Notes: generated from the letters alone by a model not told the origin. A stretch of DNA of 59,784 nt from an uncultured Alphaproteobacteria bacterium (GCA_963974885.1 CAXBEY010000002.1:1-59784); one strand, 5' to 3'. Numbered from the stretch's first letter, positions 3,319 to 59,757 are shown. Program-made: numbers and translations.

Positions 3319-5136
3319 CTATAAGGCCTTTTCTACAGCACTTAGGGCCTTTCCTTCAAGAGCTTTTTTTATGCTGCGACCCATGCGGCGTTCTGCAAAG
3401 ATTTGAGTGACAGCTTCAAGGGCTTTGGAGCCTTGAACAATTGCCTCCCGTTGATTAGTCTTTAAAGCCTCATCTAAGACATCCATCTGCTCTAAAATGT
3501 CTTCATATTCTGTGTCATTGAGGAGGGCGCGGTCCGAGGCTAAGGCCGGCAAAAGAGACTCTAAGAAGCGATTGGCTTCGACCTTGGATTCCGCCAATAA
3601 ACGAGCGTGAACGTCTTCTTCTGCATTTTCAAGGCTAGCCATAATCATGGTGCGCATCTCATCTTCCCCTAAACCATAGGCGGGCTTGACTTCAATATGT
3701 TGTGAAATACCCGTAGTTTCTTCCCTGGCACTCACCGTTAAAAGGCCATCGCTATCCACTTGGAAGGTGACCTCAATGCGGGCAGCACCCGCCACCATGG
3801 GGGGGATGCCGGTGAGTTTAAACTGGGCAAGGGAACGGCAGTGGATGGCCATGTCCCGTTCCCCTTGAACCACATGGAGCAAGAGTCCTGTTTGCCCATC
3901 TTTGTAGGTGGTAAAGTTTTTGGCTTTGCGAATAGGGAGGGGAGAGTTGCGCTCAATGAGGGAATCAACCATACCGCCCATAATTTCAAGACCAAGGGAA
4001 AGGGGCGTGACATCCATCAAAAGAGTATCCGAGCCATGGGTGAGGGCATGGGCTTGGAGAGCAGCCCCTTGGGCCACAATTGTTAGGGGATCAGTGTTTG
4101 TTAAAACCGGTTGTTGGAAAAGTTTTTCAACGTTGCGGCGTACGAGAGGAATGCGGGTGGACCCCCCAACCATAACGATGCCTTGAATAGGGTTAAGGTC
4201 GATATTCGCATAGGTTAAGGTCTCACGGCACACCGTCAAAGCGCGCTCAACAAGAGGCTGTGCAAGGGTCTCAAAATCCTGGCGAGACAGGACATGCTTG
4301 TGATTTCCAAGGGTGATGGTGACAGCATCTTGGGTGCTTAACTCTTCTTTGGCGCCTTTAATAATTTGCAAAGCCTGTCTGAAATCAAAACCCTTTAGGG
4401 GAAGACTTTTCAACAAAGCCTGGTCAAAATCATCTCCCCCAAGGTGGGCGTCCCCATTGGAGGCAATAACTTGAAACACACCTTTTTGTAACTTTAAAAG
4501 AGAAAAGTCAAAGGTGCCTCCCCCCAGATCAAAAACGGCATAAAGGCCTTCTGATCCTTGGTCAAGACCATAGGCGAGGGCAGCGGCCGTTGGCTCATTC
4601 ACAAGGCGCAACACCTCGAGTCCGGCAAGTCGCGCGGCATTTTTGGTGGCGGCCCTCGCACCATCGTCAAAGTAGGCAGGTACGGTGATCACCGCGTGAG
4701 TCACCGATTCTTTGAGGGCTTTTTCGGCTTGTTTTTTGAGCTCTTTTAAAATATCGCTGGAAATTTCAAGGGGAGAAAGATGTTGCCCTTTGATATCGAG
4801 GGTTAAGGCCCCTTTAGCATCCTTTGAAAGGGGATACACCTTTTCATCCACCGTCCCTTTGATATCGCTCAAACTCTTTCCCATGAGGCGCTTGATAGAG
4901 GTGATAACGCACTGGGGCGTCTCTTTAAGATCACAGAGCGCGCGCTCTCCCACAAGGGGAGTATCGCCCTTATAAGAGACAACAGACGGGAGGATATCTG
5001 ATAGGATGCGCACCTCTTCAGTGCCTTTTTTATAGGCGGCTAAAGAGTGAGTGGTTCCTAAATCAATACCAATGGCAACGGGAATTTTGCTTGGCTTTGG
5101 AGAGGATTGGTTGGGTTCTTTAAGCTGTAGAAGCAT
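3319..5136 (-). CDS. hscA: Fe-S cluster assembly chaperone HscA (Hsp70 family)
   Basis: Hsp70 motifs [26 protein letters not shown]. 605 aa, overlaps the hscB stop by 17 nt. Confidence 0.95.
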
Positions 5137-19718: not shown

Positions 19719-20273
19719 ATGGTTGTCCCCGCGTTTAAAACAAAGCGCCTTATTTTAAAACCTATCACATTGGATGATGTACAAGCTTATGAAAAAGGAT
19801 TTGTAGATTATGAGGTTATCCGCCATTTAGCGGCTCATGTGCCGTGGCCCTATCCTAAGGGGGGAGTGCATGAGTTTCTTGCACATCATATTTTGCCTGC
19901 ACAAGGAAAAAGCAATTGGTGTTGGGGACTATTCTTAAAAGCAAACTCTAAAGACCTCATAGGTAGTCTTGAAATTCGCTTGAGCAAAACTGATAATCGA
20001 GGTTTTTGGCTTGCTAAGCAGCATTGGGGAAAAGGCTATATGAGCGAAGCCGTTGAGCCTGTCATGACCTATGCCTTTGAAGAGCTAAATTTTGAGAAAA
20101 TGATTTTTACCAATGCAAAAGGTAATCAACGCTCGAGGCGTATTAAGGAAAAAACAGGGGCAAAATTTATGAGCCTGAAACCGGTACAATTTATCGATCC
20201 CCAATATACTGAATCCGAGATTTGGGAGCTCACAAAGGCAGAGTGGACGGCCCATAAAAGTAAAGAAGATTAG
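19719..20273 (+). CDS. GNAT family N-acetyltransferase (RimJ/RimL-like)
   Basis: 184 aa with the acetyl-CoA region QHWGKGYMSEA and a typical GNAT beta-alpha layout. Confidence 0.8.
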   Translation: MVVPAFKTKRLILKPITLDDVQAYEKGFVDYEVIRHLAAHVPWPYPKGGVHEFLAHHILPAQGKSNWCWGLFLKANSKDLIGSLEIRLSKTDNRGFWLAKQHWGKGYMSEAVEPVMTYAFEELNFEKMIFTNAKGNQRSRRIKEKTGAKFMSLKPVQFIDPQYTESEIWELTKAEWTAHKSKED

Positions 20274-20278
20274 AGGAG

Positions 20279-20365
20279 AGCGCTCTTAAAACGTTCTCAC
20301 AGTTAAAACGCTCTTACAATTTCCTCACACATTTTCTTTGCATCACCAAAAAGCATCATGGTGTT
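20279..20365 (-). repeat. left copy of the pntB 3'-end direct repeat (24-nt mini-copy plus 63-nt copy)
   Basis: 20303-20365 matches 25555-25617 at 55/63 nt. 20279-20302 matches 25548-25571 at 19/24 nt. Both were aligned by hand. Confidence 0.85.
20303..20365 (-). pseudogene. pntB: orphan pntB 3' fragment (last 20 codons plus stop)
   Basis: The minus-strand translation NTMMLFGDAKKMCEEIVRAF-stop is identical to the C-terminus of the intact PntB (25555-26952). Upstream of it the frame is broken by indels and an in-frame TAA. Confidence 0.85.
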
Positions 20366-20386
20366 TTACGAAGAGAAAATCGCTTC

Positions 20387-23300
20387 TCAAATGATGCACT
20401 TCACCTGTGAAGGGGCTTCTTTAATAGCCCAGCGCTCAATGGCCTTGATAAGCTTGTCTTTTCGAAGGGGCTTGTTTAAATAATCATCCATTCCGGCGGC
20501 AAGACATTTATCTTTATCACCCTGCATTGCATTGGCTGTTAAGGCAACAATAGGACACTGTTGTTTTGAAAGGATTTTTCGGATACACTTTGTTGCGTCG
20601 AAGCCATCCATTTCTGGCATCTGGCAATCCATAAAAATTAAATCATAATCATTTTTCTTAAATTGTTCGACGGCCTCTTTTCCATTGACGGCCGTTGAAA
20701 CAGTCACACCCATTTTTTTCAATATCGTGCTTAATAGAACCATGTTTGCTTTCATATCTTCAACAATAAGGATATGTACACCTCTGAATCTTTGGGATTG
20801 GTCAATAACAGGTCCGTCTGTTCCTTGGATTAGAGCGTCAACAAGAGCTGGGTTTAAAGCGCGTTTAACAAAAGTACTATCGTTAAGGGACTGCTTTAGA
20901 ATTTTCAAACAATTTTCTAGCATATGAAGTTGCAGAGGCTTTGTTAATTGCGCATCAAGATAGGGTAAAATCTCTTTCTCGTCGATCATGTAAAGGGCAT
21001 TAACTAAGTGAATTTTAAAGGATTTTTCCGTCCCCTTGATGTCTTTTAATTTATGACCAAAGATAATTGGGTCGTTATCAATTAACTTTGAATTTATAAA
21101 AATATAGTTATAGGAAAAATCTTTTTTAGATTTTTCTGTTAAGTGTTGTATGAACTCTTCCTCTGAAGAAACAAAGTGTGTGGAAATAGATAGGTGAGTC
21201 AGATATTGATTTATGGCTTCTCCCCCAAGACCCTCTTCTTCTAGAATAAGAGCACTTTGTCCCTCAAAGGCGATGTCCTTATACTTTTCAACACACTTTT
21301 CTGTTAGGTCGTTGTGTTTTTTTAAGGCCAATTGAAAAAAGAATGTACTTCCTTCCCCAAATTCACTTTTCACCCCTATGTTTCCTCCCATAAGTTCAAC
21401 TAATTTTTCACAAATCGAGAGTCCTAGACCTGTTCCGCCAAATTGCCTAGAAGTAGACTCCTCAGCTTGGGAGAAATTATGAAAAATGTAATCTATCTTA
21501 TCTTTTTGTATGCCAATTCCCGTATCTTCCACTGCAAATTTAAGCTGGGTGGAATGTTTGAGGTCTTGTATGACGGAGATCCTAAGAGCAACATGGCCAG
21601 ACTTTGTAAACTTAATAGCATTCCCAATGAGGTTAATAATCACTTGACGAATACGCCCAGGGTCTCCAATAAGTCCCGATGGTACATCAGGCTCAATAAT
21701 GGAGTAAATTTCGATGCCTTGTGCTAAAGCTCTGACACGAATGAGCTCAAAAATTTCTTCAATAACTTTATGAATATTAAAATTGATGGATTCCAGAAGG
21801 AGTTCATGGGCTTCAATTTTGGAAAAATCTAGAATATCGTTAATAATATCTAGAAGAGAGTCCCCAGATGTTTTAATGGTCTTGGCCCAATAACGTTGTT
21901 CCGCTTTTAACTCAGACTCAAGAATAAGGTCAACCATGCCGAGTACAGCGTTGAGGGGCGTTCTAATTTCGTGGCTCATATTGGCTAAGAAGTTACCTTT
22001 TGCATAGGTTGCGGCTTCTGCTTTTTCTTTTTCTAAACGTAAATCCTCTTCGATTTTTATACGTTGAATAGAGATACCCAGTTGATTAAAGATATTCTCA
22101 ATGGTTTCAGTTAAGCCTTTATCAAATTTAAATTCATTGGTTGAAAAAAACTCTGCCACACCAAAAAATCTATTCCCTGCACGAATAGGATATGCATAAA
22201 CTGCTTTAATACCTGCTTTTCTTAAAAGTGTTCCCCGAATCAACATCTCATGGTTATCCATGTTTTTAATATAATCTGGTTTATTGATACTCATGACCTT
22301 CCCAGGCAGTCCTTCTCCCAGTCGAAAAACCATTTTTGATAGGTCATATTTGAGGTCTTCATCCCCTTCACCGGACCATATGTTAGTGCTTTCTAACTCC
22401 CTTGTTTTAGGATTTAAAACATACATATGTCCACATGTCCAACAGGCATAAGTTGTAATGAGCCTTAAACAGGCAGCAACGGCATCTTCGAAATTCTCCG
22501 CATTATTCGCTGCAGAGCTGCCTTGATAAAGCATGTTCATTAATAGGTTTTCACGGGATTTACTGTTTTTCAGAGAAATCATCTTGTCCTTAAAGATGCT
22601 AAGAGCCTTACCCATTTCAGCGACTTCATCCATGCCCGTACTGGGAATGACCGTATCAAGGTTTCCCGCTGAAACTTCCATCATGCTGCCTTTTAATTCC
22701 TCTAAGCGCCGCGTAATGTTTTTGCCAACAATCCACCACCCCACAAAAAAAGAAATAACAATGGAAAGAAAGGCAATTGTAAAAATGACAGCCTTTCCGA
22801 AAACAATCTCACTTTCAGCGCCATCTTGAATGTCGGTTACCTGCTGTTTTATGTTTTTTTTAAGGCGTAATAAATGAGTAGAAATATCATTTGTAGAATG
22901 CCAAATAGCATCTTTCAATTCTATCAATCGCTTTTCGTTCAAGAGCTGAGCCCGTTTTATTTCAAAAATATTATTCTTTCCGAGGCCACTATTGATTAAC
23001 TCTGCCACAGATTTCTCTAGATCTTTTGCAGAGGGGGTCTGTTTTTTACCTGTCTCTAATAAACCAGCCATATAATTTTTTATTTTGATTTGGCTTGCAT
23101 TAAATCTTTCTTGCAAAGGAGCGAGGTTCTCGATATTTACTAGGTTTTTAGTGAGATTTAAAATGCCAAAGAGCAAGTTTCCCTCAGACTTTAATTCTAG
23201 GGCATATGAAAGGGCTCTCGAGTTTTCTCCTAGAAAGTCTAATGAAAGATTTTTTTTATCTATGGTAGAAAGTCCATAAAGGGCATCATCGGATATAGGC

Positions 23301-23797
23301 GTAATGAAAATAATAAAGTTATTTTGAATTTTTTGCAGTTTAGTGGAAAAATCTAGCAGCATTTTTCTATATTCGATGCGCTCCAAAACAGATGAGTTAA
23401 TATGACCAGCAATATTTTCAATTTCTGATAATTTTTTATTTATGGAGCTTATTTTTAAATCTTTAACTGTTAGAGATTGAATATAATTCAGTGATAAACG
23501 CATTCGTGCGACATGAGTAATCATTTCTATAAAAATATTGGATAACTCATCTTTATTACGAGAAGCAAGCGCTTTATTCACATCAAAATTAAGATCCATA
23601 GAAAATAGATCAAGATCTGATGCGGCGGCAGAAATGGGGGTACTTTCACGGGTGATAATATATAAGGTTTTTGAAAAAGTTTGAAAAAGAGCCCATGAGA
23701 CTAAGGCAAGTATAAAAGCAAAGAGTGTAACTGTTCCAATGACAGCATAGATTTTTGATCTAATGCTAATAAATAAAGGTATGTTTTTGTGAACCAT
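20387..23797 (-). CDS. hybrid sensor histidine kinase / response regulator (TM-sensor-TM-HAMP-GAF-HisKA-HATPase-pseudoREC-REC)
   Basis: Two TM helices flank a ~300-aa helical extracytoplasmic region, followed by HAMP and a GAF-like segment. H-box is FLANMSHEIRTPLN (His codon 21971-21973). N-box is NLIGNAIKFT, G-boxes are DTGIGI and GGTGLGLSI. The C-terminal receiver reads ILIVEDM...LIFMDCQMPEMDG...LNKP. Confidence 0.9.
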   Translation of the reverse strand: MVHKNIPLFISIRSKIYAVIGTVTLFAFILALVSWALFQTFSKTLYIITRESTPISAAASDLDLFSMDLNFDVNKALASRNKDELSNIFIEMITHVARMRLSLNYIQSLTVKDLKISSINKKLSEIENIAGHINSSVLERIEYRKMLLDFSTKLQKIQNNFIIFITPISDDALYGLSTIDKKNLSLDFLGENSRALSYALELKSEGNLLFGILNLTKNLVNIENLAPLQERFNASQIKIKNYMAGLLETGKKQTPSAKDLEKSVAELINSGLGKNNIFEIKRAQLLNEKRLIELKDAIWHSTNDISTHLLRLKKNIKQQVTDIQDGAESEIVFGKAVIFTIAFLSIVISFFVGWWIVGKNITRRLEELKGSMMEVSAGNLDTVIPSTGMDEVAEMGKALSIFKDKMISLKNSKSRENLLMNMLYQGSSAANNAENFEDAVAACLRLITTYACWTCGHMYVLNPKTRELESTNIWSGEGDEDLKYDLSKMVFRLGEGLPGKVMSINKPDYIKNMDNHEMLIRGTLLRKAGIKAVYAYPIRAGNRFFGVAEFFSTNEFKFDKGLTETIENIFNQLGISIQRIKIEEDLRLEKEKAEAATYAKGNFLANMSHEIRTPLNAVLGMVDLILESELKAEQRYWAKTIKTSGDSLLDIINDILDFSKIEAHELLLESINFNIHKVIEEIFELIRVRALAQGIEIYSIIEPDVPSGLIGDPGRIRQVIINLIGNAIKFTKSGHVALRISVIQDLKHSTQLKFAVEDTGIGIQKDKIDYIFHNFSQAEESTSRQFGGTGLGLSICEKLVELMGGNIGVKSEFGEGSTFFFQLALKKHNDLTEKCVEKYKDIAFEGQSALILEEEGLGGEAINQYLTHLSISTHFVSSEEEFIQHLTEKSKKDFSYNYIFINSKLIDNDPIIFGHKLKDIKGTEKSFKIHLVNALYMIDEKEILPYLDAQLTKPLQLHMLENCLKILKQSLNDSTFVKRALNPALVDALIQGTDGPVIDQSQRFRGVHILIVEDMKANMVLLSTILKKMGVTVSTAVNGKEAVEQFKKNDYDLIFMDCQMPEMDGFDATKCIRKILSKQQCPIVALTANAMQGDKDKCLAAGMDDYLNKPLRKDKLIKAIERWAIKEAPSQVKCII

Positions 23798-23945
23798 TTC
23801 TTTGCAGCCTTTTATTTCATTTATTTGTTTTTTTTAAAAAATATTTATTATGTTTGAATTACCATTTATCCATCATTTTTATTCTTTAGGTCATTTGTTA
23901 ATAATTTATTAATTTCTTTCTACAATTATAAATATAGGAAATTAT

Positions 23946-24875
23946 TTGATTGTTCATATTATGAGAATTTTTGAAGATGCCGTGGGATCAGAAATATTAA
24001 GTGAATTTGAAGAAAATCGCCGTACAAAAACCTCTTGTTTTTGTCTCTTATTTCATCTATCTAACCTTGATGCTCCTTTAGAGGCAAGGAATAGAGAGCT
24101 AATCCAAAATTTTATTAAAAATGAGTTTTCAGATTCCTCGGGACTTATCTTTATTATGAACACATCGGACATCATTTTTTTTCTTCCACAAATGAATGCA
24201 AGAGCCATAGAAAAAATCAAAATCAATATGAGCTATTGTTTATCGGATATATTATATGGATCAAAATCAACAGATATAGAGCAATATATTAGCCAATATG
24301 ATCTAGGAACATGTTATGCGGAATGCTACTTAATCCTCAAAGCTCTTGCAGAAAAGCCTCAAAATACTGAACAGACTCATTCAAATATAAAAAATAATGA
24401 TGATACTCAATTAAACAAGGTCACAAAAAAAGACCCAATGTTTCTACAATTTGTTTTAAACAAAAGCTATAATAAGGACATTTTTGTTCCTTTATTAAGA
24501 TCCCGACCTAATCGTTCTAAAAAAATTATCCTCATCATTGAAGACCAAGTCTTTTCCCAGAAAATTTTAAGAAATTGCATAGTCGGTAATTATATTGTAG
24601 AAAGTGCTGAAAATGCGATTATGGGTTTAAGGATGTATCTCAAGCTGGTTCCCGATATTGTCTTTCTCGATTGGCATCTCCCAGATATTAATGGCATTGA
24701 ATTTTTGAAACAAATAACGAAAATAGATTCTGGAGCTTACATTGTTATGTCCACGGCGAACAATACAAGCAATTGTGTTAATGCTGCTCTTTCTAATGGA
24801 GCAAAAGGCTACATTACAAAGCCATATAATAAAGAAAAAATTAATAAAAATCTTTATGCATTTGAGAAACGATAA
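23946..24875 (+). CDS. response regulator with C-terminal receiver and unassigned ~190-aa N-terminal domain
   Basis: Receiver motifs are LIIEDQ, VFLDWHLPDINGIEF, IVMSTA and YITKPY. The TTG start at 23946 lies 5 nt after AGGAA; an alternative ATG is at 23961. The N-terminal domain was not recognised. Confidence 0.8.
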   Translation: MIVHIMRIFEDAVGSEILSEFEENRRTKTSCFCLLFHLSNLDAPLEARNRELIQNFIKNEFSDSSGLIFIMNTSDIIFFLPQMNARAIEKIKINMSYCLSDILYGSKSTDIEQYISQYDLGTCYAECYLILKALAEKPQNTEQTHSNIKNNDDTQLNKVTKKDPMFLQFVLNKSYNKDIFVPLLRSRPNRSKKIILIIEDQVFSQKILRNCIVGNYIVESAENAIMGLRMYLKLVPDIVFLDWHLPDINGIEFLKQITKIDSGAYIVMSTANNTSNCVNAALSNGAKGYITKPYNKEKINKNLYAFEKR

Positions 24876-24893
24876 TAAAATTAGGAAAAAGTC

Positions 24894-25214
24894 ATGGAAA
24901 ATGAATTTGACTTAGAGCAACTTGAAGAAATGACAGACGGGGACCCTGAATTGAAAAAGGAGATTATTGAAGCCTTTTTTGAGTGTGGGGACGAGTGCCT
25001 TACAGACCTAGAACAAAGTATTACAGGGGAAAATTTAGCCTGGAAGGAAAAAGCACATGCTCTTAAAGGAATTGCGCTTAATTTTGGGGCAACGAGGGTA
25101 GCAGAATTAAGCGCCTCCGCAGAAGAGGCCTGGGAAATAAGTATTGAAGAAAAAGGGAAACTTTTTATCGAAATTCAAACTGCTTATAATTCTGCTAGGG
25201 CGTATTTTTCGTAG
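24894..25214 (+). CDS. Hpt (histidine phosphotransfer) domain protein
   Basis: 106-aa four-helix-type protein with the Hpt signature KAHALKGIALNFGA. Begins 18 nt after the response regulator gene. Confidence 0.8.
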   Translation: MENEFDLEQLEEMTDGDPELKKEIIEAFFECGDECLTDLEQSITGENLAWKEKAHALKGIALNFGATRVAELSASAEEAWEISIEEKGKLFIEIQTAYNSARAYFS

Positions 25215-25483
25215 TTTTTTTGGCTCTATACAGCAGGTGAAACCTTTTTGGAATCACTATACAGTCACTTATCTTTGCACTGAACGTTTGTTGTTGCGCT
25301 TCAGTTTAGAAGATGGGTATGCAAAAATAGATACTATTCCCCTCTCTCCTAAATATTATACTTCTTTTCCGTGGATCGGGAGCTACCAAACTTATGTTAT
25401 TCAAAAAGCAAACTCGGCCGTTAGATATTTCTTAACAATATCAGAGGTTTTAAGTAAGTAGCATCCCTCCTTTATGGATGATG

Positions 25484-25516
25484 AAAAAAACCACGAGGTA
25501 ATTCTCGTGGTTTTTT
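25484..25516. terminator. bidirectional rho-independent terminator between the Hpt gene and pntB
   Basis: aaaaaaa-ccacgag-gtaatt-ctcgtgg-tttttt. The 7-bp GC-containing stem can be extended by A/T pairing, and there are T-runs on both strands. Confidence 0.7.
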
Positions 25517-25547
25517 GTTTTCAAAAAAGTTTTGAATAAAAGGGAAC

Positions 25548-25617
25548 AGCGCTTTTAAAATGCTCTCACGATCTCCTCACACATCTTTTTAGCATCGCCA
25601 AAAAGCATCATGGTGTT
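25548..25617 (-). repeat. right copy of the pntB 3'-end direct repeat (part of the intact gene)
   Basis: See the left copy. The identical 20-nt core ccaaaaagcatcatggtgtt lies at 25598-25617 and 20346-20365. Confidence 0.85.
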
Positions 25618-26952
25618 GTCTCTGTAGAAGAGCTCATTATCAACACCGGAATACCCAGGGCTAAGGGAGCGTTTCACAAAGAGAACGGTTTTGGCATTTT
25701 CCACATCCAAAATGGGCATGCCATAAATAGGGCTCTTGGGATCTGTTTTAGCAATAGGGTTTGTCACATCGTTGGCGCCAATCACAAAAGCGACATCGGT
25801 TTGAGAAAAGTCACGGTTGATTTCGTCCAGTTCCAGTACATCTTCATAGGGAATATTAGCCTCTGCCAATAAAACATTCATGTGACCGGGCATGCGGCCT
25901 GCTACAGGATGAATGGCATAACGGACTTTGATCCCTTTTCCTTTGAGAGCATCGGTCATCTCACGCAGTGCATGTTGAGCTTGGGCAACGGCCATCCCAT
26001 ATCCTGGGACAATAATCACAGATTCGGCATTCTCGAGGATATACGCCGCATCATCGGCACTGCCCGATTTATGGGAGCGATCGCCTTGGGCAGCACTTCC
26101 TGAAGGTGCAGCTGCTGAGTCACCTCCCCCAAATCCACCTAAGACCACATTGAAAATAGAACGGTTCATGCCTTTACACATGATGTAACTTAGGATGGCA
26201 CCGGATGCCCCTACGAGGGCACCTGTGATAATAAGCAAGTGGTTGTTGAGGGTAAAACCAATACCAGCCGCCGCCCAACCTGAATAGGAATTCAGCATGG
26301 AGACAATGACCGGCATATCAGCCCCACCAATGGGGAGGATGAGCAAGAATCCAAGAAGAAGGCTCACCGTTACAACGAGGGCGAAAATGGCATAGGACTC
26401 TGATTGCACAAAGAAGAACGTAAGGGCAATGAGGCTCAAGCCAAGGGCAGCATTTAACCAGTGCTGTCCTGAAAAGGTAAGGGGCGTACCAGTAACCAAG
26501 CCTTGGAGTTTACCAAAGGCTACAAGGGATCCCGTAAAGGTGATCGCCCCAATGGCAACACCAATGGACATCTCAATGAGGCTGGCATCTGCGATGTGAC
26601 CAACGGTGCCAATGCCAAAGGCAGCAGGGTTTAACAAAGCAGAGGTCGCGACGCACACCGCGGCCAATCCAACAAGGCTGTGAAAGGCTGCGACCAATTG
26701 GGGGAGGGCTGTCATCTCAATCTTTTTGGCAATGACCGTTCCAATAGCACCACCAACGGCAATACCAAGGAGAATAAGGAAATAGCTGTTCACATCTCGG
26801 GAAAAGACCGTTGCTGAGATCGCAAGGATCATACCGATCATGCCGTAGGCATTACCGCCTCTCGCTGTTTTTGGAGACGATAAACCGCGCAATGCCATAA
26901 TAAAGCAGACAGAGGCGATGAGGTAAAGGATGGCTTGAAGATTATCAGTCAT
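25555..26952 (-). CDS. pntB: NAD(P) transhydrogenase subunit beta
   Basis: N-terminal multi-TM domain plus the C-terminal NADP(H)-binding dIII domain (VIIVPGYGMAVAQAQ, GANDVTNP). 465 aa. Confidence 0.95.
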   Translation of the reverse strand: MTDNLQAILYLIASVCFIMALRGLSSPKTARGGNAYGMIGMILAISATVFSRDVNSYFLILLGIAVGGAIGTVIAKKIEMTALPQLVAAFHSLVGLAAVCVATSALLNPAAFGIGTVGHIADASLIEMSIGVAIGAITFTGSLVAFGKLQGLVTGTPLTFSGQHWLNAALGLSLIALTFFFVQSESYAIFALVVTVSLLLGFLLILPIGGADMPVIVSMLNSYSGWAAAGIGFTLNNHLLIITGALVGASGAILSYIMCKGMNRSIFNVVLGGFGGGDSAAAPSGSAAQGDRSHKSGSADDAAYILENAESVIIVPGYGMAVAQAQHALREMTDALKGKGIKVRYAIHPVAGRMPGHMNVLLAEANIPYEDVLELDEINRDFSQTDVAFVIGANDVTNPIAKTDPKSPIYGMPILDVENAKTVLFVKRSLSPGYSGVDNELFYRDNTMMLFGDAKKMCEEIVRAF

Positions 26953-26965
26953 GGGATAGGGGCCT

Positions 26966-27397
26966 TTATTTTTTCTTTTTATTAGAAGAGAACATGGAGA
27001 GCATGCGTTGTGTCACAATAAAGCCACCAAAAATATTAATGGAAGCAAGGGTGACGGCCACAAAGCCCATGACGGATGCAAAGTTAAAGTCTGAAAGACC
27101 AGCTGCCATAAGGGCGCCAACGATGATCACACTGGAAACCGCATTAGTGATCGCCATGAGGGGCGAGTGCAAGGCTGGTGTGACTTTCCAAACAACATAG
27201 TACCCCACAAAAGCCGCGAGGATAAAAATGGTAAGGCCCATAATAAGGGGAGATACTCCCAAGGTGGCGGCCTCTTGGGCAGCAGCTGCATTAACGGCAT
27301 CTTGCGCCATGCGTTGGAGTTCCGTTGATTTTTCAGCAAGGGCAAGGGCCTTATTTGAAATCTCTTTTGCGTTTTGAACGACAGTATCTAAACTCAT
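26966..27397 (-). CDS. pntAB: NAD(P) transhydrogenase subunit alpha part 2 (membrane)
   Basis: 143-aa protein with about 3 TM helices, located between pntAA and pntB. This is the split-alpha arrangement typical of alphaproteobacteria. Confidence 0.9.
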
Positions 27398-27400
27398 TTT

Positions 27401-28627
27401 TTAGACCTTTTTCTTTGTGGCTGTTTTGGGAGGCGCCTTTTTTAGGGGGGCTTTTTTAGGGCCAGTAAGATTCTTAAAATTTGGGTGGATAATCGCCCCA
27501 CCATGGGTCAAGATTGAGCCTTTAAGAATGTCATCACCCAAGTTAATATTTAATTTTTTAGCTTCTTTGTCCCATAGAAGAACCAGAAGGTTATAAATAT
27601 TACGAGAGTAAAGGGTGCTGGATTCCGCAGCAAGGCGCCCGGGAAGGTTGCCATAGCCAATGATTTTTACGCCTTTTTTCTCAACAACTTTTTCAGGCTG
27701 TGAGCCGTCAACATTGCCACCGGCTTCAACGGCCATGTCCACGATCACGCTCCCAGACTTCATAGAGCCAACCATGGCAGCAGAAATGAGTTTTGGCGCG
27801 GGCTTTCCGGGAATAAGCGCTGTTGTAATAATGATATCCGAGGCAGCGACAGTCTCGGCAATTTTTTCAGCCTGACGCTTTTTGTACTCAGCACTCATTT
27901 CCTTGGCGTATCCACCGGTGGTTTCGGCGTCTTGGGTTTCATCGTTAGTCTCATCATAGGCAACTTCGACGAACTTTGCGCCTAAGCTCTGGACTTGTTC
28001 TTTAACGGCAGGACGTACATCAAAAGCCGAGACAACAGCGCCGAGACGCTTTGCTGTGGCGATGGCCTGAAGACCGGCAACACCGGCTCCCAGAATAAGG
28101 ACTTTTGCTGGCGGCACGGTGCCAGCCGCCGTCATCATCATGGGGAAAGAAGCGCCGTAATGATAAAGGGCCTCAATAACAGCGCGATAGCCGCCAAGGT
28201 TGGCTTGGGAGGATAAAATATCCATGCTTTGAGCACGGGTAATACGGGGAATCATCTCGAGGCTAATGGCCGTAATCCCGTTTTTGCCATAGGCCTTAAT
28301 GCCCTCATCATTAGAAAAGGGGGCAAGGGTCGAGATCAAGAGAGCGCCTTTTTTGAGGGGACTGAGCTCGTCAATTTTTCCCTCACCCTTCATCAAAGGG
28401 TGACGCACTTTCAAAAGAATGTCTGTATTTTTAGACGCCGCTTCCGCAGTCGCGGCAAGGGTTGCGCCGGCTTCTTTATAAGCCTCGTCGGTGAAAGAAG
28501 CCTGTAAGCCGGCTCCTTTTTCAACGTGCACATTGAATCCAAGAGCCGCCATTTTTTTGACTGTCTCTGGGGTTGCCGCAACCCGCGTTTCATTTTGGCG
28601 GCGCTCTTTTAGAACGGTAATTTTCAT
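27401..28627 (-). CDS. pntAA: NAD(P) transhydrogenase subunit alpha part 1 (dI, NAD(H)-binding)
   Basis: AlaDH/PNT fold with the Rossmann motif VLILGAGVAGLQAIATAKRLGA. It carries an extra Lys/Pro-rich C-terminal tail. Confidence 0.95.
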   Translation of the reverse strand: MKITVLKERRQNETRVAATPETVKKMAALGFNVHVEKGAGLQASFTDEAYKEAGATLAATAEAASKNTDILLKVRHPLMKGEGKIDELSPLKKGALLISTLAPFSNDEGIKAYGKNGITAISLEMIPRITRAQSMDILSSQANLGGYRAVIEALYHYGASFPMMMTAAGTVPPAKVLILGAGVAGLQAIATAKRLGAVVSAFDVRPAVKEQVQSLGAKFVEVAYDETNDETQDAETTGGYAKEMSAEYKKRQAEKIAETVAASDIIITTALIPGKPAPKLISAAMVGSMKSGSVIVDMAVEAGGNVDGSQPEKVVEKKGVKIIGYGNLPGRLAAESSTLYSRNIYNLLVLLWDKEAKKLNINLGDDILKGSILTHGGAIIHPNFKNLTGPKKAPLKKAPPKTATKKKV

Positions 28628-28771
28628 GGAAAAAGCCTTTTATATTTTCCTTTATTTTTATCATGAAATAGGGACGGTTGTAAGCCCTTCCTCTTAAAAA
28701 TAATTCATTGATGTCGAAAATTTATGTTAAATTAGAAATAGTATAAGAATTTTAATGAATGCAGGGCGAAA

Positions 28772-29221
28772 ATGAAAATAGACCTTAGAGGGCTTTTGGG
28801 AGCGTTAAGTATGGGTGGCGCCGTTATTTTGTCGAGCTGTAATGGCGAGGGGCTCGGTTCATCTGAGCGTATTATTAGCTCGGGCTGGGCACGGGTTTCC
28901 AATGAAGATGCCGAGGGACAAGCACCGGTATATTGCTATAAAACTCTTGCAGCTCCCGATTGTTACACAACACCTGATCCAAAACGCAGCGCCCAACTTG
29001 TCAGCGTTTACCCTGCAAAGAACACAGCCCGCCCCATTGGCATTGAAAAAATTATCAAAGCTGTTATTGGCGATGACGATGAGGAAAATGAAAATGCCAT
29101 CAAAGAGCGAGAGCTAGATAAAGTTCGTTACTACCCTACCCCCGAAGAAAAAGAGCTCTCAAGGAACCTGGAAGCCGCACGGCGTGGTAAAGAAGTCGGC
29201 GGCCCTTTTAATCTGAAATAG
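28772..29221 (+). CDS. hypothetical lipoprotein
   Basis: Signal peptide with lipobox ILSSC (Cys23). 149 aa with an acidic C-terminal half. No recognisable family. Confidence 0.6.
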   Translation: MKIDLRGLLGALSMGGAVILSSCNGEGLGSSERIISSGWARVSNEDAEGQAPVYCYKTLAAPDCYTTPDPKRSAQLVSVYPAKNTARPIGIEKIIKAVIGDDDEENENAIKERELDKVRYYPTPEEKELSRNLEAARRGKEVGGPFNLK

Positions 29222-29227
29222 GGGAGG

Positions 29228-29719
29228 CTAAGTTTGGACAACACTTCTAAAGTCACTTAGCATTGTCACAATGCAGCCATTTCCCATAGGTTTCATATAC
29301 ATTGTTCCACCCTTATCATGCAGGAACTCTGTGAAATCTGCACACTCACCACTAACCTTATAACCTTTTATTTTGCCTAAGCAAGAAAGACAAGATTTAG
29401 AAGAAGTCATTATAGCTGTAACATTTGCTATACATTTATCATTTAATTTCCTTAGGAATACATCAGTCATCATGGAATCTCCCTTTCTTCCATGTGTGAC
29501 AGTTATTTTAAGAGCATTTTTTTCACCTGGCATTACACTTGTGTTTACTCTCACATCATCATTTTTTCCTTGAAATATATCGGAAATAACCTTTCTACAG
29601 CCGTGCATCCCTCTTTTTTCAATCATTTTGTTAATAAAGTTAACACTATTTTCTGAGGTGGAACCTTGGGCTGTAACGGAAAGCCCTAGCGTTGCTAATA
29701 AGACATAAAATATTTTCAT
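29228..29719 (-). CDS. hypothetical secreted Cys-containing protein
   Basis: Signal peptide MKIFYVLLATLGLSVTAQG, 163 aa, 8 Cys residues, AT-rich codon usage. No recognisable family. Confidence 0.55.
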   Translation of the reverse strand: MKIFYVLLATLGLSVTAQGSTSENSVNFINKMIEKRGMHGCRKVISDIFQGKNDDVRVNTSVMPGEKNALKITVTHGRKGDSMMTDVFLRKLNDKCIANVTAIMTSSKSCLSCLGKIKGYKVSGECADFTEFLHDKGGTMYMKPMGNGCIVTMLSDFRSVVQT

Positions 29720-29876
29720 AAAAAAAATCCTTAAATTTTGAAATAATATTTAAAGAAAAAATACACCTTAAATAGAGGAGTGTCCACTCAATAGGTCAGA
29801 AAAAAGGTTTAATTTTTGAGGCAACGGGGGATGGGTTGAAGCATGCTGCTTTTCAAACGCTCTTTTAGGGGGACTT

Positions 29877-31109
29877 TTAAGAATCGGCGCGTGGATCCAG
29901 TTCCGCTGCGATGGGGGTTGTGTTGGGCATGGGAACAAAGTTATGTTGTTCGTCGGACGTGTGGGGTTTTTGCATAAAGAGGCGGCTGAAAAGGTAAAGA
30001 CCTAAGCCAAGGCAAGCCACATTGAAATATATAAAAATACCGGTGTAGCCGAAAACCAATTGAAATACAGGGGCGATCAGGGGGCCAAAAATAGCGCCTA
30101 CACCATAGGCCAGCATAAGGCCTTGTGTGGCAGAGACAATAGCATTAGGGTCGAGGACGTCACAGGTATGGCTCATGCTAACGGGGTATAATGAAAAGGA
30201 CGCACCGCCAAACAAGAACATGAGAGCATATAAAAAGAGACCAGATTGCTGGGGTATGGTAACTAAAGCGCACCCAATGGCAATGATAACGGCACATAGA
30301 ATTATCAGCATCTTCCGACGGTCAAATTGGTCCGATAACCAGCCCACGGGGTATTGCAATAAAACGCCTCCCATCAAAACCAAAAACATCACAAAGGCCG
30401 TTTCTGATAAATCTGCTAGTACGGCTCGAAGGTATAAGGGCACGAAAGCTGAAATAGCACCGAACATTAAACCCGAGCATGTACAAGACACCAAGCCCGA
30501 GGGAGAAAGCCTAAAAAGGTCTAAGACATTTAACGCAGATGGTTCTTCGATCACGGGGTTTCCTGCGCGGGTTGTGGCAAGGGGAACAATGGACAGAGCT
30601 GCCAAAATAGCTGCGATGGTAAACAAAAGAGAGGATGTTGCACTTCCAATGTTTAAAAGAAATTGACCCGATGCTGAGGCTCCATAAATGGCAATCATAT
30701 ATAGGGCAAGAAAGACGCCTCGTGTTTTAACGGTGCTTTCTTTTAGAATCCAGCTTTCAATAACAATGTATAAACCGGCTAAGCAGTAGCCTGACAAAGC
30801 TCGTAATAGACACCAAAGTATTAAAGAATAAGAGAGCCCCATGGAGAGAATCGCAACTGTGATGAGGGCTGCAAAGGCTGAAAAGGCCCTGATGTGACCA
30901 ATTCGTAAAATAAGATTTGCGTTACGAAAAGCCCCAAGAGCCATACCCAAATAATAGGCACCCGTAATGATACCAACGTCAAAAGCGCTTCCGCCGCCCG
31001 CATTAATTTGGATGGGAATAAAGGTTGCCAAAGCACCAAGGCCATTGATGAGGATAAATATGCTCAACAAGGGGGCTGCGATTTTTAAGAGTGTCTTTGT
31101 TTGAATCAT
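29877..31109 (-). CDS. MFS transporter
   Basis: About 12 predicted TM helices and a loop 2-3-like motif (SDQFDRRKML). 410 aa. Confidence 0.85.
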   Translation of the reverse strand: MIQTKTLLKIAAPLLSIFILINGLGALATFIPIQINAGGGSAFDVGIITGAYYLGMALGAFRNANLILRIGHIRAFSAFAALITVAILSMGLSYSLILWCLLRALSGYCLAGLYIVIESWILKESTVKTRGVFLALYMIAIYGASASGQFLLNIGSATSSLLFTIAAILAALSIVPLATTRAGNPVIEEPSALNVLDLFRLSPSGLVSCTCSGLMFGAISAFVPLYLRAVLADLSETAFVMFLVLMGGVLLQYPVGWLSDQFDRRKMLIILCAVIIAIGCALVTIPQQSGLFLYALMFLFGGASFSLYPVSMSHTCDVLDPNAIVSATQGLMLAYGVGAIFGPLIAPVFQLVFGYTGIFIYFNVACLGLGLYLFSRLFMQKPHTSDEQHNFVPMPNTTPIAAELDPRADS

Positions 31110-38984: not shown

Positions 38985-40556
38985 TTAAACAGCAGGCGCC
39001 TCTTTTCCTGAGATCGTTTGAGACTTTTCCTCTGTGTCTTTAGAGGAGCAAGCACGGTTATAGCGCACGGCTAAGGCACCAACACCAATGACCCAGGCGA
39101 GAACAATACCAGCAATAATAACGGCCAAATAAGGGGTGACAATCATAATATCTTGCACGGCAAAGACCGTGAAAATACCAAGAATTGTCCAGCCACCGGC
39201 TGCTTTACCAAGGCGCCCCCCAATAACATCAACAGCGGCTTTACCCTTTGTTTTAAGGTCTTGATCCAAGGGGATATAGGCCATTTCTTTTGTCGGATCA
39301 AAGAGCGCATATTTCGTGCCTTTTGTGAGGATGTTTTGCAACGCCCCAACTAAGACCGCCATATAAGTTGCGGTAAATCCGAGACCCATGACAATAGGAT
39401 TCAGTTGCTCACTAAACAAGACAAGGGCAAAGAAAAGCCCACCGGTAATGGCTAGAACGAGAGGGGTGATAACCGCGCCTGTGAACCAACCAAAACGCCC
39501 AACAATTCCCTTTGTGAGGAAAATGATGCTGATGGTAGCCGCACCGGTTACACGGGAGAAGTTCCCCATAAAGGTATTATAACCATTGGGGTCACCGCTA
39601 AATTGAAGGGAAAGTTGTTTTTTCCAAATCACTTCGATGAGGTTAATGGACATACCATAGCTTAAAACCAAAAGAGCAATAAGGCCAATATAGGGAGAAG
39701 AGAAAAGATACTTAAAGCTCTCCATGACACCCAACTTTGCTTTCTTCTTCTTTGGGGCTTTTGGTGAGGCTGCATCATAATACAAAGGATTTGTCAGCAC
39801 ATTTTTATGCATCCAACGATAGATATACATGGCAATGGAGCCCGCAACCACAATGGTAACACCGAGGTATTTCAAAGACACGCCCCATGCGTCAACATCT
39901 GCTGGAAGGGAGTGGCGAATATCTGAAAACATCACAACAGCAGTCCCAGAAAGCATCAAGGCAATGTTACCAATGAGGACGAATAAGGGATAAAAGCGTT
40001 TTGCCTCAGTAGAGCGTACAATTTCGTTAGCAAACTGCCAAAACAAAAGAGAAATCATGACGCTGCCCCAAAGTTCGGACATCACATAGAATAAAGAATA
40101 AGTCCATACAGCCCAAACAGAGAGCAAGAACTTTACACGAGGAAATTCAGTCTGTAATTCATGGACTCGGCTAATATCAGGATGCAGCATGTCAATGTTA
40201 GGATAAAGGACAAAGGAAAAGATGCCAAAAAAGACAAGGAAACTGGTTACAATACCGTAAAAAAGCTTTTCAGATGAGAACATATTTGTGAGCTTTGTAT
40301 ATAAAACCACAAAGGACATAGCCCCGATCATCACAAAAATTGCCTTCAGGTAAGGAATGGCTTCGGGGCCAGCACCGGGAGCTGTTGCGATCAACGAATC
40401 TTTCGTATCTCGTAGAATTGTGTAATTAAAAAGAACACATAGCATGATCAATGCCAGGGGCAAAAACTTTTTGATTTCAATGGTGTGGATTGGAAAAATA
40501 GCGGCTCGAACCTTGCTAAATGTTGGTTCCGGTGCGCCTGCTTTCACAGTGGACAT
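38985..40556 (-). CDS. tlc: ATP/ADP translocase (Tlc/NTT nucleotide transporter)
   Basis: 523 aa, about 12 TM helices. N-terminal signature FLPLALIMLCVLFNYTILRDTKDSL is typical of rickettsial/chlamydial Tlc proteins. Confidence 0.9.
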   Translation of the reverse strand: MSTVKAGAPEPTFSKVRAAIFPIHTIEIKKFLPLALIMLCVLFNYTILRDTKDSLIATAPGAGPEAIPYLKAIFVMIGAMSFVVLYTKLTNMFSSEKLFYGIVTSFLVFFGIFSFVLYPNIDMLHPDISRVHELQTEFPRVKFLLSVWAVWTYSLFYVMSELWGSVMISLLFWQFANEIVRSTEAKRFYPLFVLIGNIALMLSGTAVVMFSDIRHSLPADVDAWGVSLKYLGVTIVVAGSIAMYIYRWMHKNVLTNPLYYDAASPKAPKKKKAKLGVMESFKYLFSSPYIGLIALLVLSYGMSINLIEVIWKKQLSLQFSGDPNGYNTFMGNFSRVTGAATISIIFLTKGIVGRFGWFTGAVITPLVLAITGGLFFALVLFSEQLNPIVMGLGFTATYMAVLVGALQNILTKGTKYALFDPTKEMAYIPLDQDLKTKGKAAVDVIGGRLGKAAGGWTILGIFTVFAVQDIMIVTPYLAVIIAGIVLAWVIGVGALAVRYNRACSSKDTEEKSQTISGKEAPAV

Positions 40557-48675: not shown

Positions 48676-49023
48676 ATGACGACTACCGAGATTATTCAGA
48701 AAAAAATTAAGGACCATGATGTTGTTTTATTCATGAAAGGCACAGCTACTTTTCCCCAATGTGGGTTTTCTGGTTTTGTGGTGCAAGTGCTTCAAAGTTT
48801 AGAGGTGGACTTTACAGATGTAAATGTGTTGGAAGACCCTGAGTTGCGCCAAGGCATTAAAGACTTTTCTAGCTGGCCAACGATTCCTCAACTTTATGTA
48901 AAGGGTGAATTCGTTGGTGGTGCTGATATTATTAAAGAAATGATGCAGTCCGGCGAGTTGAAAGACCTCTTTCAGCATTGTAGTCTTTCCAAAACAATCC
49001 CAGACGTCGTCAATCTCTCCTAA
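48676..49023 (+). CDS. grxD: monothiol glutaredoxin (Grx4/GrxD family)
   Basis: CGFS active site (PQCGFSG), [16 protein letters not shown], 115 aa. Confidence 0.95.
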
Positions 49024-49044
49024 ACTACAAGGGGTAGTCGTCGG

Positions 49045-49956
49045 TCACTCTTTCCTAGACTGGGACCTTTTTGGAAAGACTATAGAATTAAGAAGAGCGT
49101 TCGCTAAAAGCGGCGCGATGCTAATTTGTCGAATTTTGGGATGGTCCTGTGTTTCCTCTGATCTGAGGAGACTATCGGTTATAATCAGGTGTTGGAGGGA
49201 AGACTCTTTGAGCCGTTGGTGAGAATCCTTTGATAAAACACCGTGTGTTGCATAGGCGCTTATGCCTTTTGCTCCGTGCTCTTTTAAAGTTTGGGCTGCG
49301 TTGCAAAGGGTTTTAGCCGTATCTACGATGTCATCTAAAATAAGACAGTCTTTGCCTGCGACATCACCTATAAAGCCTATCACATGGGGCTCTCCCTTAT
49401 GATCTCGGCGCTTTTGAAAGTGCGCCAGGGAAAGATTAAGTCTCCTTGCCATCTCTTTAGTACGGGGGAGGGCGCCTTGATCTGGAGCAACGAGCACACT
49501 GTTGCTCAGGTCAAAGTGTTGGCGGATATCTTCCTCTATTAGGGATGTCGGTTGTAAGTTTTGGACCGGAATGTCGAAAAAAGGCTCTATGTCTTTTGAG
49601 TGTAAGTCTAAGGTGATTATTTCAGTGGCCCCCGATTCTTGAAAAAGTTTTGAAATCGTTTGTGCTAGGGAATTCTGGCGAGCATAGTAAAAATAAGGCA
49701 AAACAGCGACGATATGTTGCGCCCCTTTTTGCCGAGCGTGATCAAGGATTAAGAAAAGTTCCATCAGGCTCTGGTGCGCTGAAATTGAGGTTGTTTGAAG
49801 GGCCGCAACGTACTCCCCTTGAAGAGAGTCTTGAATTTTAATCATTATTTCGCCATTTGGGAAATATTTTATTTCCTCATGGACAACCTCGGTTCCCAAA
49901 ACCTTTGCTACACTGTTAGACAGAGCTTTATTGCTATTGCCAGAAAGCAGAATCAT
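49045..49956 (-). CDS. prs: ribose-phosphate pyrophosphokinase
   Basis: N-terminal LLSGNSNKALS...YFPNGEI and PRPP-binding loop LILDDIVDTAKTL. 303 aa. Confidence 0.9.
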   Translation of the reverse strand: MILLSGNSNKALSNSVAKVLGTEVVHEEIKYFPNGEIMIKIQDSLQGEYVAALQTTSISAHQSLMELFLILDHARQKGAQHIVAVLPYFYYARQNSLAQTISKLFQESGATEIITLDLHSKDIEPFFDIPVQNLQPTSLIEEDIRQHFDLSNSVLVAPDQGALPRTKEMARRLNLSLAHFQKRRDHKGEPHVIGFIGDVAGKDCLILDDIVDTAKTLCNAAQTLKEHGAKGISAYATHGVLSKDSHQRLKESSLQHLIITDSLLRSEETQDHPKIRQISIAPLLANALLNSIVFPKRSQSRKE

Positions 49957-59700: not shown

Positions 59701-59757
59701 CTTAGTTTAGATGGTAATCCTATTAACTTGGTAAGCGACTCAGGAAGCCCACCCTGA
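53791..59757 (+). CDS. giant secreted CdiA/FhaB-like polymorphic-toxin-type protein (1988 aa)
   Basis: Single uninterrupted ORF with signal peptide ...LGPSLALA/SH. The N-terminal half is long and predicted to be beta-rich. A Gly/Ala-rich DUF637-like block follows (GPGMALAVIVAVVVTCCTGGAGG...NGGNVGKGLKQMGSKKNLKAMGTAALKSGG), then a charged linker and a C-terminal nuclease-toxin-like lead-in. The coding call is confident; the function is inferred. Confidence 0.85.
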   Translation: MRNISLSKYLSKSVHLFTIFVYLFTFLGPSLALASHAPTYAETVNGESEKPRAKTTPSTPPKSAFTGKSHTFDDLPSALQDTYHRFTLKVSQDPLSGGIHFRLRDFEGTRNLFHHVLPNDKKDSPFTPLLEDGTHTGFTVDVPDVGQIQCDWQGNLKLVGLHRISPETAPLALLLATDGSVDFSDITFKNLALHAKNVTFVQGIKIQEESVFDIDVLDLAESGFENTKLMSFLSKTRFISKKRWRNKGKIVGEKSLDFDRCMFSNPGIVYGKDHLTLSSGFFDNDGGAFHGEKGTSLNLTRYFYNKRGGKVSSGKVTHVHFHKKQEGDLGDIHGEEVVLEDLSGGFHFSLQKGRVEATHSTTLIGKHPSTKGVDFVTPQLILDAPDFSLGKQKHVERTVVKRSKGQFFTLTSPYKTAGTLEFWQKDLTTRKAVQAAMLARFGDEKGKMPAPHGKISLQSSVKAAGGLKFFTPHAKVSLGDETKEALLEFFHKQGWLEAYATEFDLEKGTLVAENAYIHAPGSIKMGRLVKDENEDLFSQKLYKKNGSTVLVRGTTTLRGPWHHRADFLTSFLILNSPKDHLFEAGSARVLKDCTLKGGGDLDLMRKRTEIFILRPNLSSGHGTRERLISFISGAPAEFLVGNYFNNDGQVNNHSSIMHAYNVKEAHKIKNIDIEACNTNLNSQHIKYQFNYFNSYFPISFKEMVTDPFHNFKGFSFKQSRGLDQYIGSGLFSGMMLGVFAALQEGLNGNGAVTYPAQTSFGEGVTVSPNEEGKTTLGGNFQAPATIVLIPTGSAEIGTRPSATLQKVHTHSPLQSLVPEAFNLHTLTMAEHLRDLMAEQPEVETFFKFHPRFWFEADKAQQFHNKLRPYVRAQRPQGGFYTPEGQVLFTISPDMLISQVQDQALKVFGRGTIEDNRKIDEEQILELHQNFVNYLKELEEVYDPETGKKITLPVGPLSLASLGQHNSRPAPKKPCIAYAAAMNEEGILELSPMIWMPKKMHAKHGITTQLLLSIPQGMRFKDFLAYAMRNPLLAAGTEKLITDHPHMISQLDEAAERYRDENKISEDDELPKAGPVTFEGDIDAKTFMGFNTGDVISHADITAEDASLVSLFGSVIMSSLVGREGSGDHFHDKIVAQARIKADKLINIFAGQDIIFQGAETISEVSTHILALANLIDVPAVLISQRTQQLSGKYKGSETWIHVHNHVSKHSSGGEYDQQTLGAQDLHGVEYDAGKLKITGKGKVNFAAVFEQLIHSSQGTKKSRFKTKNRQETTSTSTSKGGVIGSRDAAAEITSEDSDLIFEAIAFKGKYGAIIKALKGRVEFLLGHNTKNVSSMSSSSDPMWMKSTQKTEEHLTFTIPTTEGPIKVHSLETLLQSVDGQHLAFLDDLDLTEGGSLISQVIKEIHESHSKTVQGPGMALAVIVAVVVTCCTGGAGGPIAGALANALGGFMSAALAQALSVAFVAALDTALTNLTLDTMSNGGNVGKGLKQMGSKKNLKAMGTAALKSGGGKANTAIGAVGEKIVQSAMNAGIDTAINGGKFGKHFTTNLKYAGASLFVDGVIDEVSGSASNDNKAQQGPPLDFGERAQEFIGSAALNVGRQFAVNSLAGEDPKDAFIKAAAAFAAHVACFGIASGFDGLKGFFANDNDAEDNHKSRGASSSEGRPQTPEERAQEERERRDQSLHDIIDGIDYEEESTREGDGPRKGKTRQDGKTKPSSTRPTKGDDIPFDFSFATSQSVWDGIVDEEEKIQDDSGISYRFSGEKRGRSSERVETSSRSRSYSPPRIKDTYYEEGTDWFSLKVRSAYEAKERISIENFDPNDLLPAFGALSIDGVILVNDGLDKVTLGGWSTVTEFLDKVANGARTYTRRGSRFVSGDQRSAQNLGDGVYVVLSVVGGKGLKSIKLFKKMGNAVKNLRKAKTAEAARFWDKKPINFKGNKIFQRDDLIRPDFLTGTKGLTNLDRMKLGRAPLSLDGNPINLVSDSGSPP

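Follow-up and report, generated by a model that had tools for sequence, protein, structure and literature searches.

The 59,784-nucleotide stretch of DNA analysed here (the window; GCA_963974885.1 CAXBEY010000002.1:1-59784) comes from an uncultured marine alphaproteobacterium, a strain that is present in NCBI, ENA and Tara assemblies. It carries an intact copy of the housekeeping transhydrogenase gene pntB and, some 5.25 kb beyond the end of that gene, an orphan copy of its last 20 codons and stop codon, lodged between a GNAT acetyltransferase gene and the end of a hybrid sensor histidine kinase gene. This orphan is a real recombination scar: it records the displacement of a 3' end at a housekeeping gene and is linked to the relocation of a phosphorelay module, made up of an Hpt protein, a response regulator and the hybrid kinase. 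As to how the scar arose, we favour, at about even chances, general recombination anchored in conserved pntB and completed by an illegitimate far joint, which displaced the end of an older allele. All coordinates are window positions, and labels of the form L0xx denote relatives' loci and Tara scaffolds.

A second pntB end and its junctions

When 20303-20365 is aligned by machine with 25555-25617 (both on the minus strand), the two pair without gaps at 63 positions, 55 of which are identical. All eight differences are synonymous and fall on third codon positions – an arrangement with P = 5.3e-5 if eight differences were placed at random – and both copies translate to NTMMLFGDAKKMCEEIVRAF*. The first-pass annotation, which had arrived at the same duplication and the same counts by hand, is borne out in this respect. 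At 87% identity and a spacing of 5252 nt, the pair forms the longest direct repeat across the window.

Upstream of its 63 nt, the orphan has no detectable homology to pntB in local alignments against the resident gene and three relatives (shuffle P 0.16-0.55), nor does the spacer at 20366-20386 show any to the upstream sequence of the gene. The orphan copy thus ends abruptly, rather than losing frame by indels beyond the repeat, as had been proposed.

On its other side, the orphan runs into a smaller remnant. On the minus strand, the sequence ...TAA CT GTGAGAACGTTTTAA G AGCGCTCTCCTC leads up to the GNAT stop codon; GTGAGAACGTTTTAA (20286-20300) is a 15-nt mini-copy of the pntB stop region, encodes VRTF* and is identical to either pntB end at 13 of its 15 positions, and the ~12 nt that follow it (G AGCGCTCTCCTC) resemble the flank 3' of the intact pntB stop. 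Compared as 17-nt units, the orphan end and the mini-copy are alike at 13 of 17 positions only, so the mini-copy is not a fresh slippage duplication. Both the tandem mini-copy with its pntB-like flank and the earlier suggestion that it hints at more than one event therefore stand.

The junction is not an artefact of assembly, as it is reproduced exactly in an independent Tara scaffold (L094), which is 100% identical to window positions 20033-21575 and spans GNAT, the orphan and the kinase end. Another scaffold (L081, 99.97% identical) covers 23397-30733. An exact look-up of the GNAT protein returned no further assemblies of the source strain on record, and a degenerate pattern for GDAKKMCEEIVRAF*, run against metagenomes, gave four matches, among them no new orphan and one independent copy of the same junction.

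Four junctions thus lie close together around the pntB stop: the boundary of the orphan (-63), the joint to the mini-copy (+2/-15), that to GNAT (+13), and the start of a tract resembling the relative L085, described below. The features of the locus are as follows.

19719-20273, plus strand: GNAT acetyltransferase (Pfam Acetyltransf_3), with downstream synteny to L082, L084, L085 and L096
20274-20302, minus strand: nested remnant, consisting of a 2-nt linker, the 15-nt mini-copy and ~12 nt; abuts the GNAT stop codon
20303-20365, minus strand: orphan pntB end, the last 20 codons and stop of pntB; a second allele, similar to the clade consensus
20366-20386, minus strand: spacer of 21 nt from the kinase stop codon to the orphan, with an in-frame TAA at its end
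20387-23797, minus strand: hybrid sensor histidine kinase (Pfam HAMP-GAF-HisKA-HATPase-receiver)
23946-24875, plus strand: response regulator (Pfam Response_reg at residues 195-302, the receiver being C-terminal)
24894-25214, plus strand: Hpt phosphotransfer protein (Pfam Hpt), whose orthologues adjoin the kinase in L086, L087 and L097
25144-25461, plus strand: ORF105, no Pfam family; C-terminal alignment to L082 ORF127 and L084 ORF129
25483-25554, minus strand: native pntB downstream region with its apparent terminator, as read from the sequence
25555-26952, minus strand: pntB, intact and resident (Pfam PNTB, E = 1e-198); its last 63 nt are the gene-borne repeat copy
26966-27397, minus strand: pntA2
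27401-28627, minus strand: pntA1

The same locus in relatives

Relatives' loci were gathered through a PntB protein search and look-ups of genomic context, which together gave six useful loci with pntB at 94-95% amino-acid identity to the window (94% in L082/L083, L095/L096 and L092; 95% in L084 and L085); the PntB homologues as a whole grade from close to distant. In L082/L083, L095/L096, L092 and L084, pntB is followed by a terminator, a small gene on the opposite strand (open reading frame ORF127 or ORF129), GNAT and then the genes of the window, and the upstream side of pntB matches the window as well; the synteny shared by the window, L082 and L084 on that side takes in pntA2, pntA1, o149 and a major facilitator superfamily (MFS) gene. 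In L085, the terminator that follows pntB gives way to a 10-N scaffold gap, beyond which lies GNAT. This locus was considered as a true empty site, with pntB and GNAT adjacent, and rejected on account of the gap between them.

The kinase module is absent from the pntB locus in all six, and a second pntB end was found at none of them, at either the DNA or the peptide level. As the first-pass annotation had anticipated, relatives without the module thus have a single pntB end and no orphan, and in no relative does the module occupy this position; module and orphan co-occur, in the window's strain only. None of the outcomes that the first-pass annotation had named as refuting it was observed. A scan of reference genomes for PntB recovered relatives at 75% identity or less only, with no synteny and no true empty site.

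A separate observation concerns a palindromic element of ~104 nt at 48981-49084, resembling miniature inverted-repeat transposable elements (MITEs) or repetitive extragenic palindromic (REP) sequences, which forms a single long hairpin when folded (z = -4.6). In L084, a copy with 85.6% identity occupies 4772-4875, between GNAT and the gene that follows, and a partial copy of 37 nt is found at 4179-4215, between ORF129 and the GNAT stop, in the interval where the window carries its insertion.

Probably two alleles rather than a copy and its original

Over the whole gene, pntB of the window and of its relatives differ at a proportion of synonymous sites (pS) of 0.57-0.58, with a synonymous divergence (dS) of about 1.1. 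Across the last 20 codons, the resident and orphan ends differ at 8 of 10.3 synonymous sites (pS = 0.77); between the orphan and L092, L082 or L085 there are just three to four such differences, with identity at 60 of 63 positions to L092 and at 59 of 63 to L082 and L085. The orphan is nearer than the resident end to nearly every relative, the more distant L090 included, with a tie for L084; it therefore looks like the clade consensus and names no donor.

Polarisation with five outgroups places three of the changes on the resident end and one on the orphan and leaves four ambiguous. If the orphan had been copied recently within the genome and all 63 sites had since drifted neutrally, such a pattern would have a probability of 0.01 with the resolved sites and of 0.09 with every ambiguous change given to the orphan. 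Taken with the exclusively synonymous differences, a pS of 0.77 indicates that the two ends are alleles that diverged as functional gene ends under selection, which agrees with the earlier interpretation. Over the 63 nt that the ends share, the comparison supports the view that both evolved as working pntB ends, about as diverged from one another as are the pntB genes of different species.

At the gene-proximal edge of the repeat, 20 of 20 bases are identical (chance P about 0.02), a block in which the first-pass annotation had seen a possible recombination core. The identity is real, its specificity to the repeat pair is doubtful: the same 20 nt are equally identical in L082 and L092, both of which are without the insertion, and the conserved codons for NTMMLFG, two of them for Met, suffice to explain it.

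Native DNA inside the bracketed interval

The duplicated ends had been taken to bracket inserted DNA, a claim that holds for the module and fails for the interval as a whole, as ~340 nt adjoining pntB are native. Here (about 25270-25554) lie the terminator and ORF105, whose orthologues are the terminator and ORF127/129 of the orphan-free relatives. The C-terminal ~45 residues of ORF105 are conserved in a protein alignment with L082 ORF127 and L084 ORF129, and a nucleotide match spans 25328-25410. The signal-peptide part native to the family is missing from ORF105, which has instead a new N-terminus, lysine-rich and hydrophobic, that overlaps the 3' end of Hpt and is read in another frame of it. 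Judged from these alignments, ORF105 is a remodelled or 5'-truncated member of the ORF127/129 family, and may be either a pseudogene or a re-headed gene. Its truncation and its overlap with Hpt place the true insertion point just past the Hpt stop, inside the small gene, and not at the pntB stop.

Within the region 25483-25554, an AT-rich hairpin (25520-25536) and a G+C hairpin with flanking A and T runs (25484-25516) together look like a bidirectional intrinsic terminator. Part of this region, the tract 25501-25544, is identical to L085 2893-2936 at 42 of 44 positions (BLAST 95.5%), whereas the pntB genes of the window and L085 differ at 57% of synonymous sites and the terminators of L082 and L084 are quite different. 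At a neutral difference rate of 0.2-0.35, so few differences in the tract have a P from 0.004 to 2e-6. This suggests either an unusual constraint confined to the lineages of the window and L085, or a recent exchange – in which case a breakpoint would lie within ~10 nt of the pntB stop codon.

The kinase module as cargo

The nearest homologues of the kinase share 82% (a partial sequence), 74%, 73% and 53% of their amino acids with it, and all of them belong to Hpt / response-regulator / kinase modules. In the window, the Pfam families inside the bracketed interval are those of the three module genes; ORF105 has none, nor do the first ~190 residues of the response regulator (23946-24515) match Pfam. 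The absence of a recombinase from the interval, noted at first reading, is thereby confirmed.

Elsewhere, the module keeps different company.

L086: rpmH-rnpA-yidC on one side and a resistance-nodulation-division (RND) pump on the other
L087 and L088: tamA-tamB and flagellar genes
L097: flagellin genes

In the assembly that contains L086, pntB lies on a separate contig and in another context (L091). No pntB-like DNA or peptide was found beside the module in L086, L087, L088 or L097, so these four other loci offer no equivalent of the attachment site (attP) that a mobile element would carry. Nucleotide homology between modules goes no farther than the gene ends (window 20417-25220): at the kinase end it stops at ~20417, and the last ~10 kinase codons are found in the window's genome alone.

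The bracketed DNA is as AT-rich as first described, with a GC content of 27-35% at 23000-25000 against 49-52% in pntB. Low GC was considered as a mark of foreign origin and rejected, as the module is AT-richer than its surroundings in other genomes too: its genes have 31-40% GC against 41-49% in their neighbours in the window, 32-40% against 40-46% in L086 and 35-40% against 39-44% in L087, and in L088 the kinase lies only slightly below its two neighbours. Low GC is thus intrinsic to the module genes, and the dip is not evidence of a recent foreign origin. On these comparisons, the Hpt / response-regulator / hybrid-kinase module is best described as a conserved chromosomal gene set whose position shifts between lineages, and not as cargo of the island type.

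Two further observations were made on the module. Just 3' of Hpt, at 25241-25260 on the plus strand, lies a 20-nt motif, AACCTTTTTGGAATCACTAT, which matches at 19 of 20 positions a sequence 3' of Hpt at L087 17-36; it is inverted relative to the module there, and the module genes themselves share only 71-76% identity. The motif could have a regulatory role or be left over from the rearrangement. In addition, a periplasmic-binding-protein gene sits between regulator and kinase at L086 8806-9996 and L097 1249-2394 and is absent from the corresponding position in the window (23798-23945) and in L087; the sensing input of the module may differ between lineages with and without this gene.

Farther along the window, 38985-40556 encodes a TLC ATP/ADP translocase (E = 1e-177), typical of obligate intracellular bacteria, and so suggests an intracellular lifestyle. 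An ORF of 1988 residues at 53791-59757, with a weak DUF637 (haemagglutinin-like) match only, may encode a large secreted or adhesin-type protein.

How the end may have been displaced

In the reading to which we give about half of our confidence, a segment comprising a complete pntB end, the terminator, part of the small gene and the Hpt / response-regulator / hybrid-kinase module would have been joined into the interval between pntB and GNAT by general recombination, with no site-specific integrase. Conserved pntB would have served as the homologous anchor, and the far end of the segment would have been linked by an illegitimate joint to the pre-existing pntB copy, 63 nt short of its stop codon. 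The route could be homology-facilitated illegitimate recombination or, if the fragment had first circularised, a Campbell-type single crossover. The outcome would be an intact gene, with its old end pushed 5.25 kb downstream against GNAT, and the nested 15-nt mini-copy would record at least one further event at the same place. The anchoring mechanism, the age order of the copies, the donor, and the number and order of events are all our inferences from the arrangement that remains.

That arrangement has a segment of pntB duplicated on either side of the insert, one copy of which completes the gene. Its boundaries show neither terminal inverted repeats nor target-site duplication, and boundary inverted repeats are not above chance. 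A 15-nt inverted repeat with one mismatch links the kinase and regulator stop regions; by our estimate, chance alone would yield roughly one pair of this kind in 8 kb. The L085-like terminator tract may be read as a separate sign of exchange between lineages, within ~10 nt of the resident stop.

Several points weigh against this account. Had there been a single event, the orphan should be followed by the recipient's own terminator and ORF127, but it lies 29 nt from the GNAT stop; either the recipient lacked both, or they were deleted later. L085 might represent such a recipient state without the small gene, hidden by its 10-N gap. No donor with the module beside pntB was found among pntB homologues down to 87% and kinase homologues down to 53% amino-acid identity, in a sparsely sampled group. 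The relatives are about equidistant (83-88% nucleotide identity in pntB), so donor and recipient, and hence the native end, are not assignable, and no mosaic boundary appears inside pntB, where sliding identity stays flat at 0.76-0.89. The allele counts come from 63 nt, and the account would require uptake of DNA by a bacterium that is probably intracellular.

The main rival, which we regard as unlikely, keeps the rearrangement inside one genome: the module would have moved from another chromosomal site in one complex illegitimate event, such as template switching, that copied ~90 nt of the nearby pntB end as filler at the junction, and the resident pntB end would have changed afterwards, by synonymous drift or by homologous allelic replacement. 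The module is vertically conserved yet sits at a different locus in each lineage examined, so relocation must be frequent. The junctions are also untidy, with 51 nt of no assigned origin at the kinase end and, at the Hpt end, the 20-nt motif that is inverted with respect to L087, and the orphan extends ~12 nt beyond the stop codon, as expected of a templated patch. A neutral copy, however, should gather more changes and do so at all codon positions, whereas those seen are synonymous and, where polarised, lie mostly on the resident end (P = 0.01-0.09, as above); an extra allelic replacement, itself unobserved, is required in addition.

The proposal made at first reading was that of a decayed or trans-mobilised integrative element, which supplied its own replacement end, with the pntB 3' end as bacterial attachment site (attB), the two copies as attL and attR and the 20 identical bases as crossover core. 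Much of the outward form fits: DNA that is missing in relatives with a single pntB end lies between direct repeats of a gene's 3' end, the gene is intact, an identical block lies at the gene-proximal edge, and reuse of the site could have left the nested mini-copy. The parts that would make it an element do not. The interval holds no integrase or transposase, and Pfam finds none in 30 other ORFs of the window (those outside 11490-36980; within those limits, the insertion aside, absence was judged from collinearity with relatives' annotated core genes). The native terminator and ORF127-family DNA lie inside the supposed element and are present in orphan-free relatives, and L082 and L092 match the proposed core just as fully. 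The cargo, for its part, is a chromosomal module conserved in the group, beside which no pntB-like attP is seen in any of four other contexts, and no other orphan occurs at any relative's locus. No tRNA is near, the two tRNA genes being more than 9 kb away. As for insertion by a transposon or insertion sequence, we saw no transposase, terminal inverted repeats or target-site duplication, and module homology ends at gene ends. An integrative element therefore appears quite doubtful.

Less probable still is that a second pnt gene or operon once stood complete downstream of the kinase and was deleted save for its last 63 nt, which would now be the orphan. Purely synonymous divergence does require that both ends once belonged to functional genes, but no relative has two pntB copies at the locus, and redundant copies would have had to coexist for long. 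The resident copy, moreover, keeps the upstream synteny and the orphan the downstream synteny, which better fits one locus split by an insertion.

A bolder variant, and one to which we attach slight probability, makes the pntB stop region a recurrent, sequence-specific insertion hot spot in probably intracellular marine alphaproteobacteria, served by a recombinase encoded elsewhere, which could move ordinary chromosomal modules that lack mobility genes of their own; the 63-nt and 15-nt remnants and the L085-like tract, ~10 nt after the stop, would then be three uses of one site. Least probable of all is a functional orphan – for example as part of a terminator or RNA structure common to the kinase and GNAT genes, which converge here, as a fold somewhat better than that of shuffles (z = -2.15) and the undisrupted frame of the fragment might hint, against which stand the absence of an Rfam match, of a terminator-like T run and of the element itself in all relatives examined – or an assembly chimera, given the identical junction in the independent Tara scaffold.

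Known systems and significance

The event that we favour has known counterparts. In E. coli conjugation, single crossovers produce duplications of 109-950 bp of the homologous locus (PMC3240628), and PMC5361080 proposes homology-facilitated illegitimate recombination (de Vries & Wackernagel 2002, Prudhomme et al. 2002 and Meier & Wackernagel 2003, as cited there) to account for effector genes whose 3' ends are displaced and for orphaned 3' regions in series. The pntB locus would resemble such homology-facilitated or Campbell-type integration in the proposed single homologous anchor and non-homologous joint, formed with no dedicated recombinase, in the direct duplication of part of the anchor on either side of the insert (109-950 bp in PMC3240628) and in the abrupt end of homology. 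It differs in being inferred from a natural uncultured genome, in amounting to 63 nt only, in that its copies are diverged alleles, and in needing at least one further event to account for the mini-copy and for the terminator and ORF127 missing after the orphan.

A second likeness is to the C-terminal displacement of Rhs, contact-dependent inhibition (CDI) and type VI secretion system (T6SS) effectors (PMC5361080; also Jackson et al. 2009, as cited there), in which an incoming segment, with the conserved 5' portion of a gene as its anchor, brings a new 3' end, the old one is pushed downstream, and orphaned 3' fragments accumulate in series. There, however, the ends are different toxins with immunity genes, under adaptive turnover, whereas here a housekeeping transhydrogenase has the same peptide at both ends and the cargo is a signalling module. 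No polymorphic toxin or immunity-like gene was found at the locus, the gene being PntB (Pfam E = 1e-198), and the displaced pntB end looks like a by-product.

Integrase-borne islands, among them tRNA and tmRNA islands and SCCmec in rlmH/orfX, likewise enter a gene at its 3' end and leave it restored. They share with the pntB locus direct repeats of the target gene's 3' end around the insert, an intact gene and nested remnants that can mark reuse; unlike them, this locus has no recombinase that could be found and no form of its cargo with an attP, its core is of doubtful specificity, and part of its interval is native.

The pntB scar is thus one more case of a known type of event, if in a gene that is unusual for it, and reveals no new kind of system. 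Its interest lies in what it preserves. The orphan is a dated molecular fossil that keeps a second pntB allele, and it shows a signalling module to have changed its chromosomal position in this lineage while the housekeeping gene stayed intact. For the prediction of genomic islands it also counsels caution: direct repeats of a 3' end can form around AT-rich DNA with no integrase involved, and a low GC content can belong to the genes themselves. Sequences of closer relatives, should they become available, could reveal at this locus how the genomes of uncultured intracellular bacteria are reshuffled.

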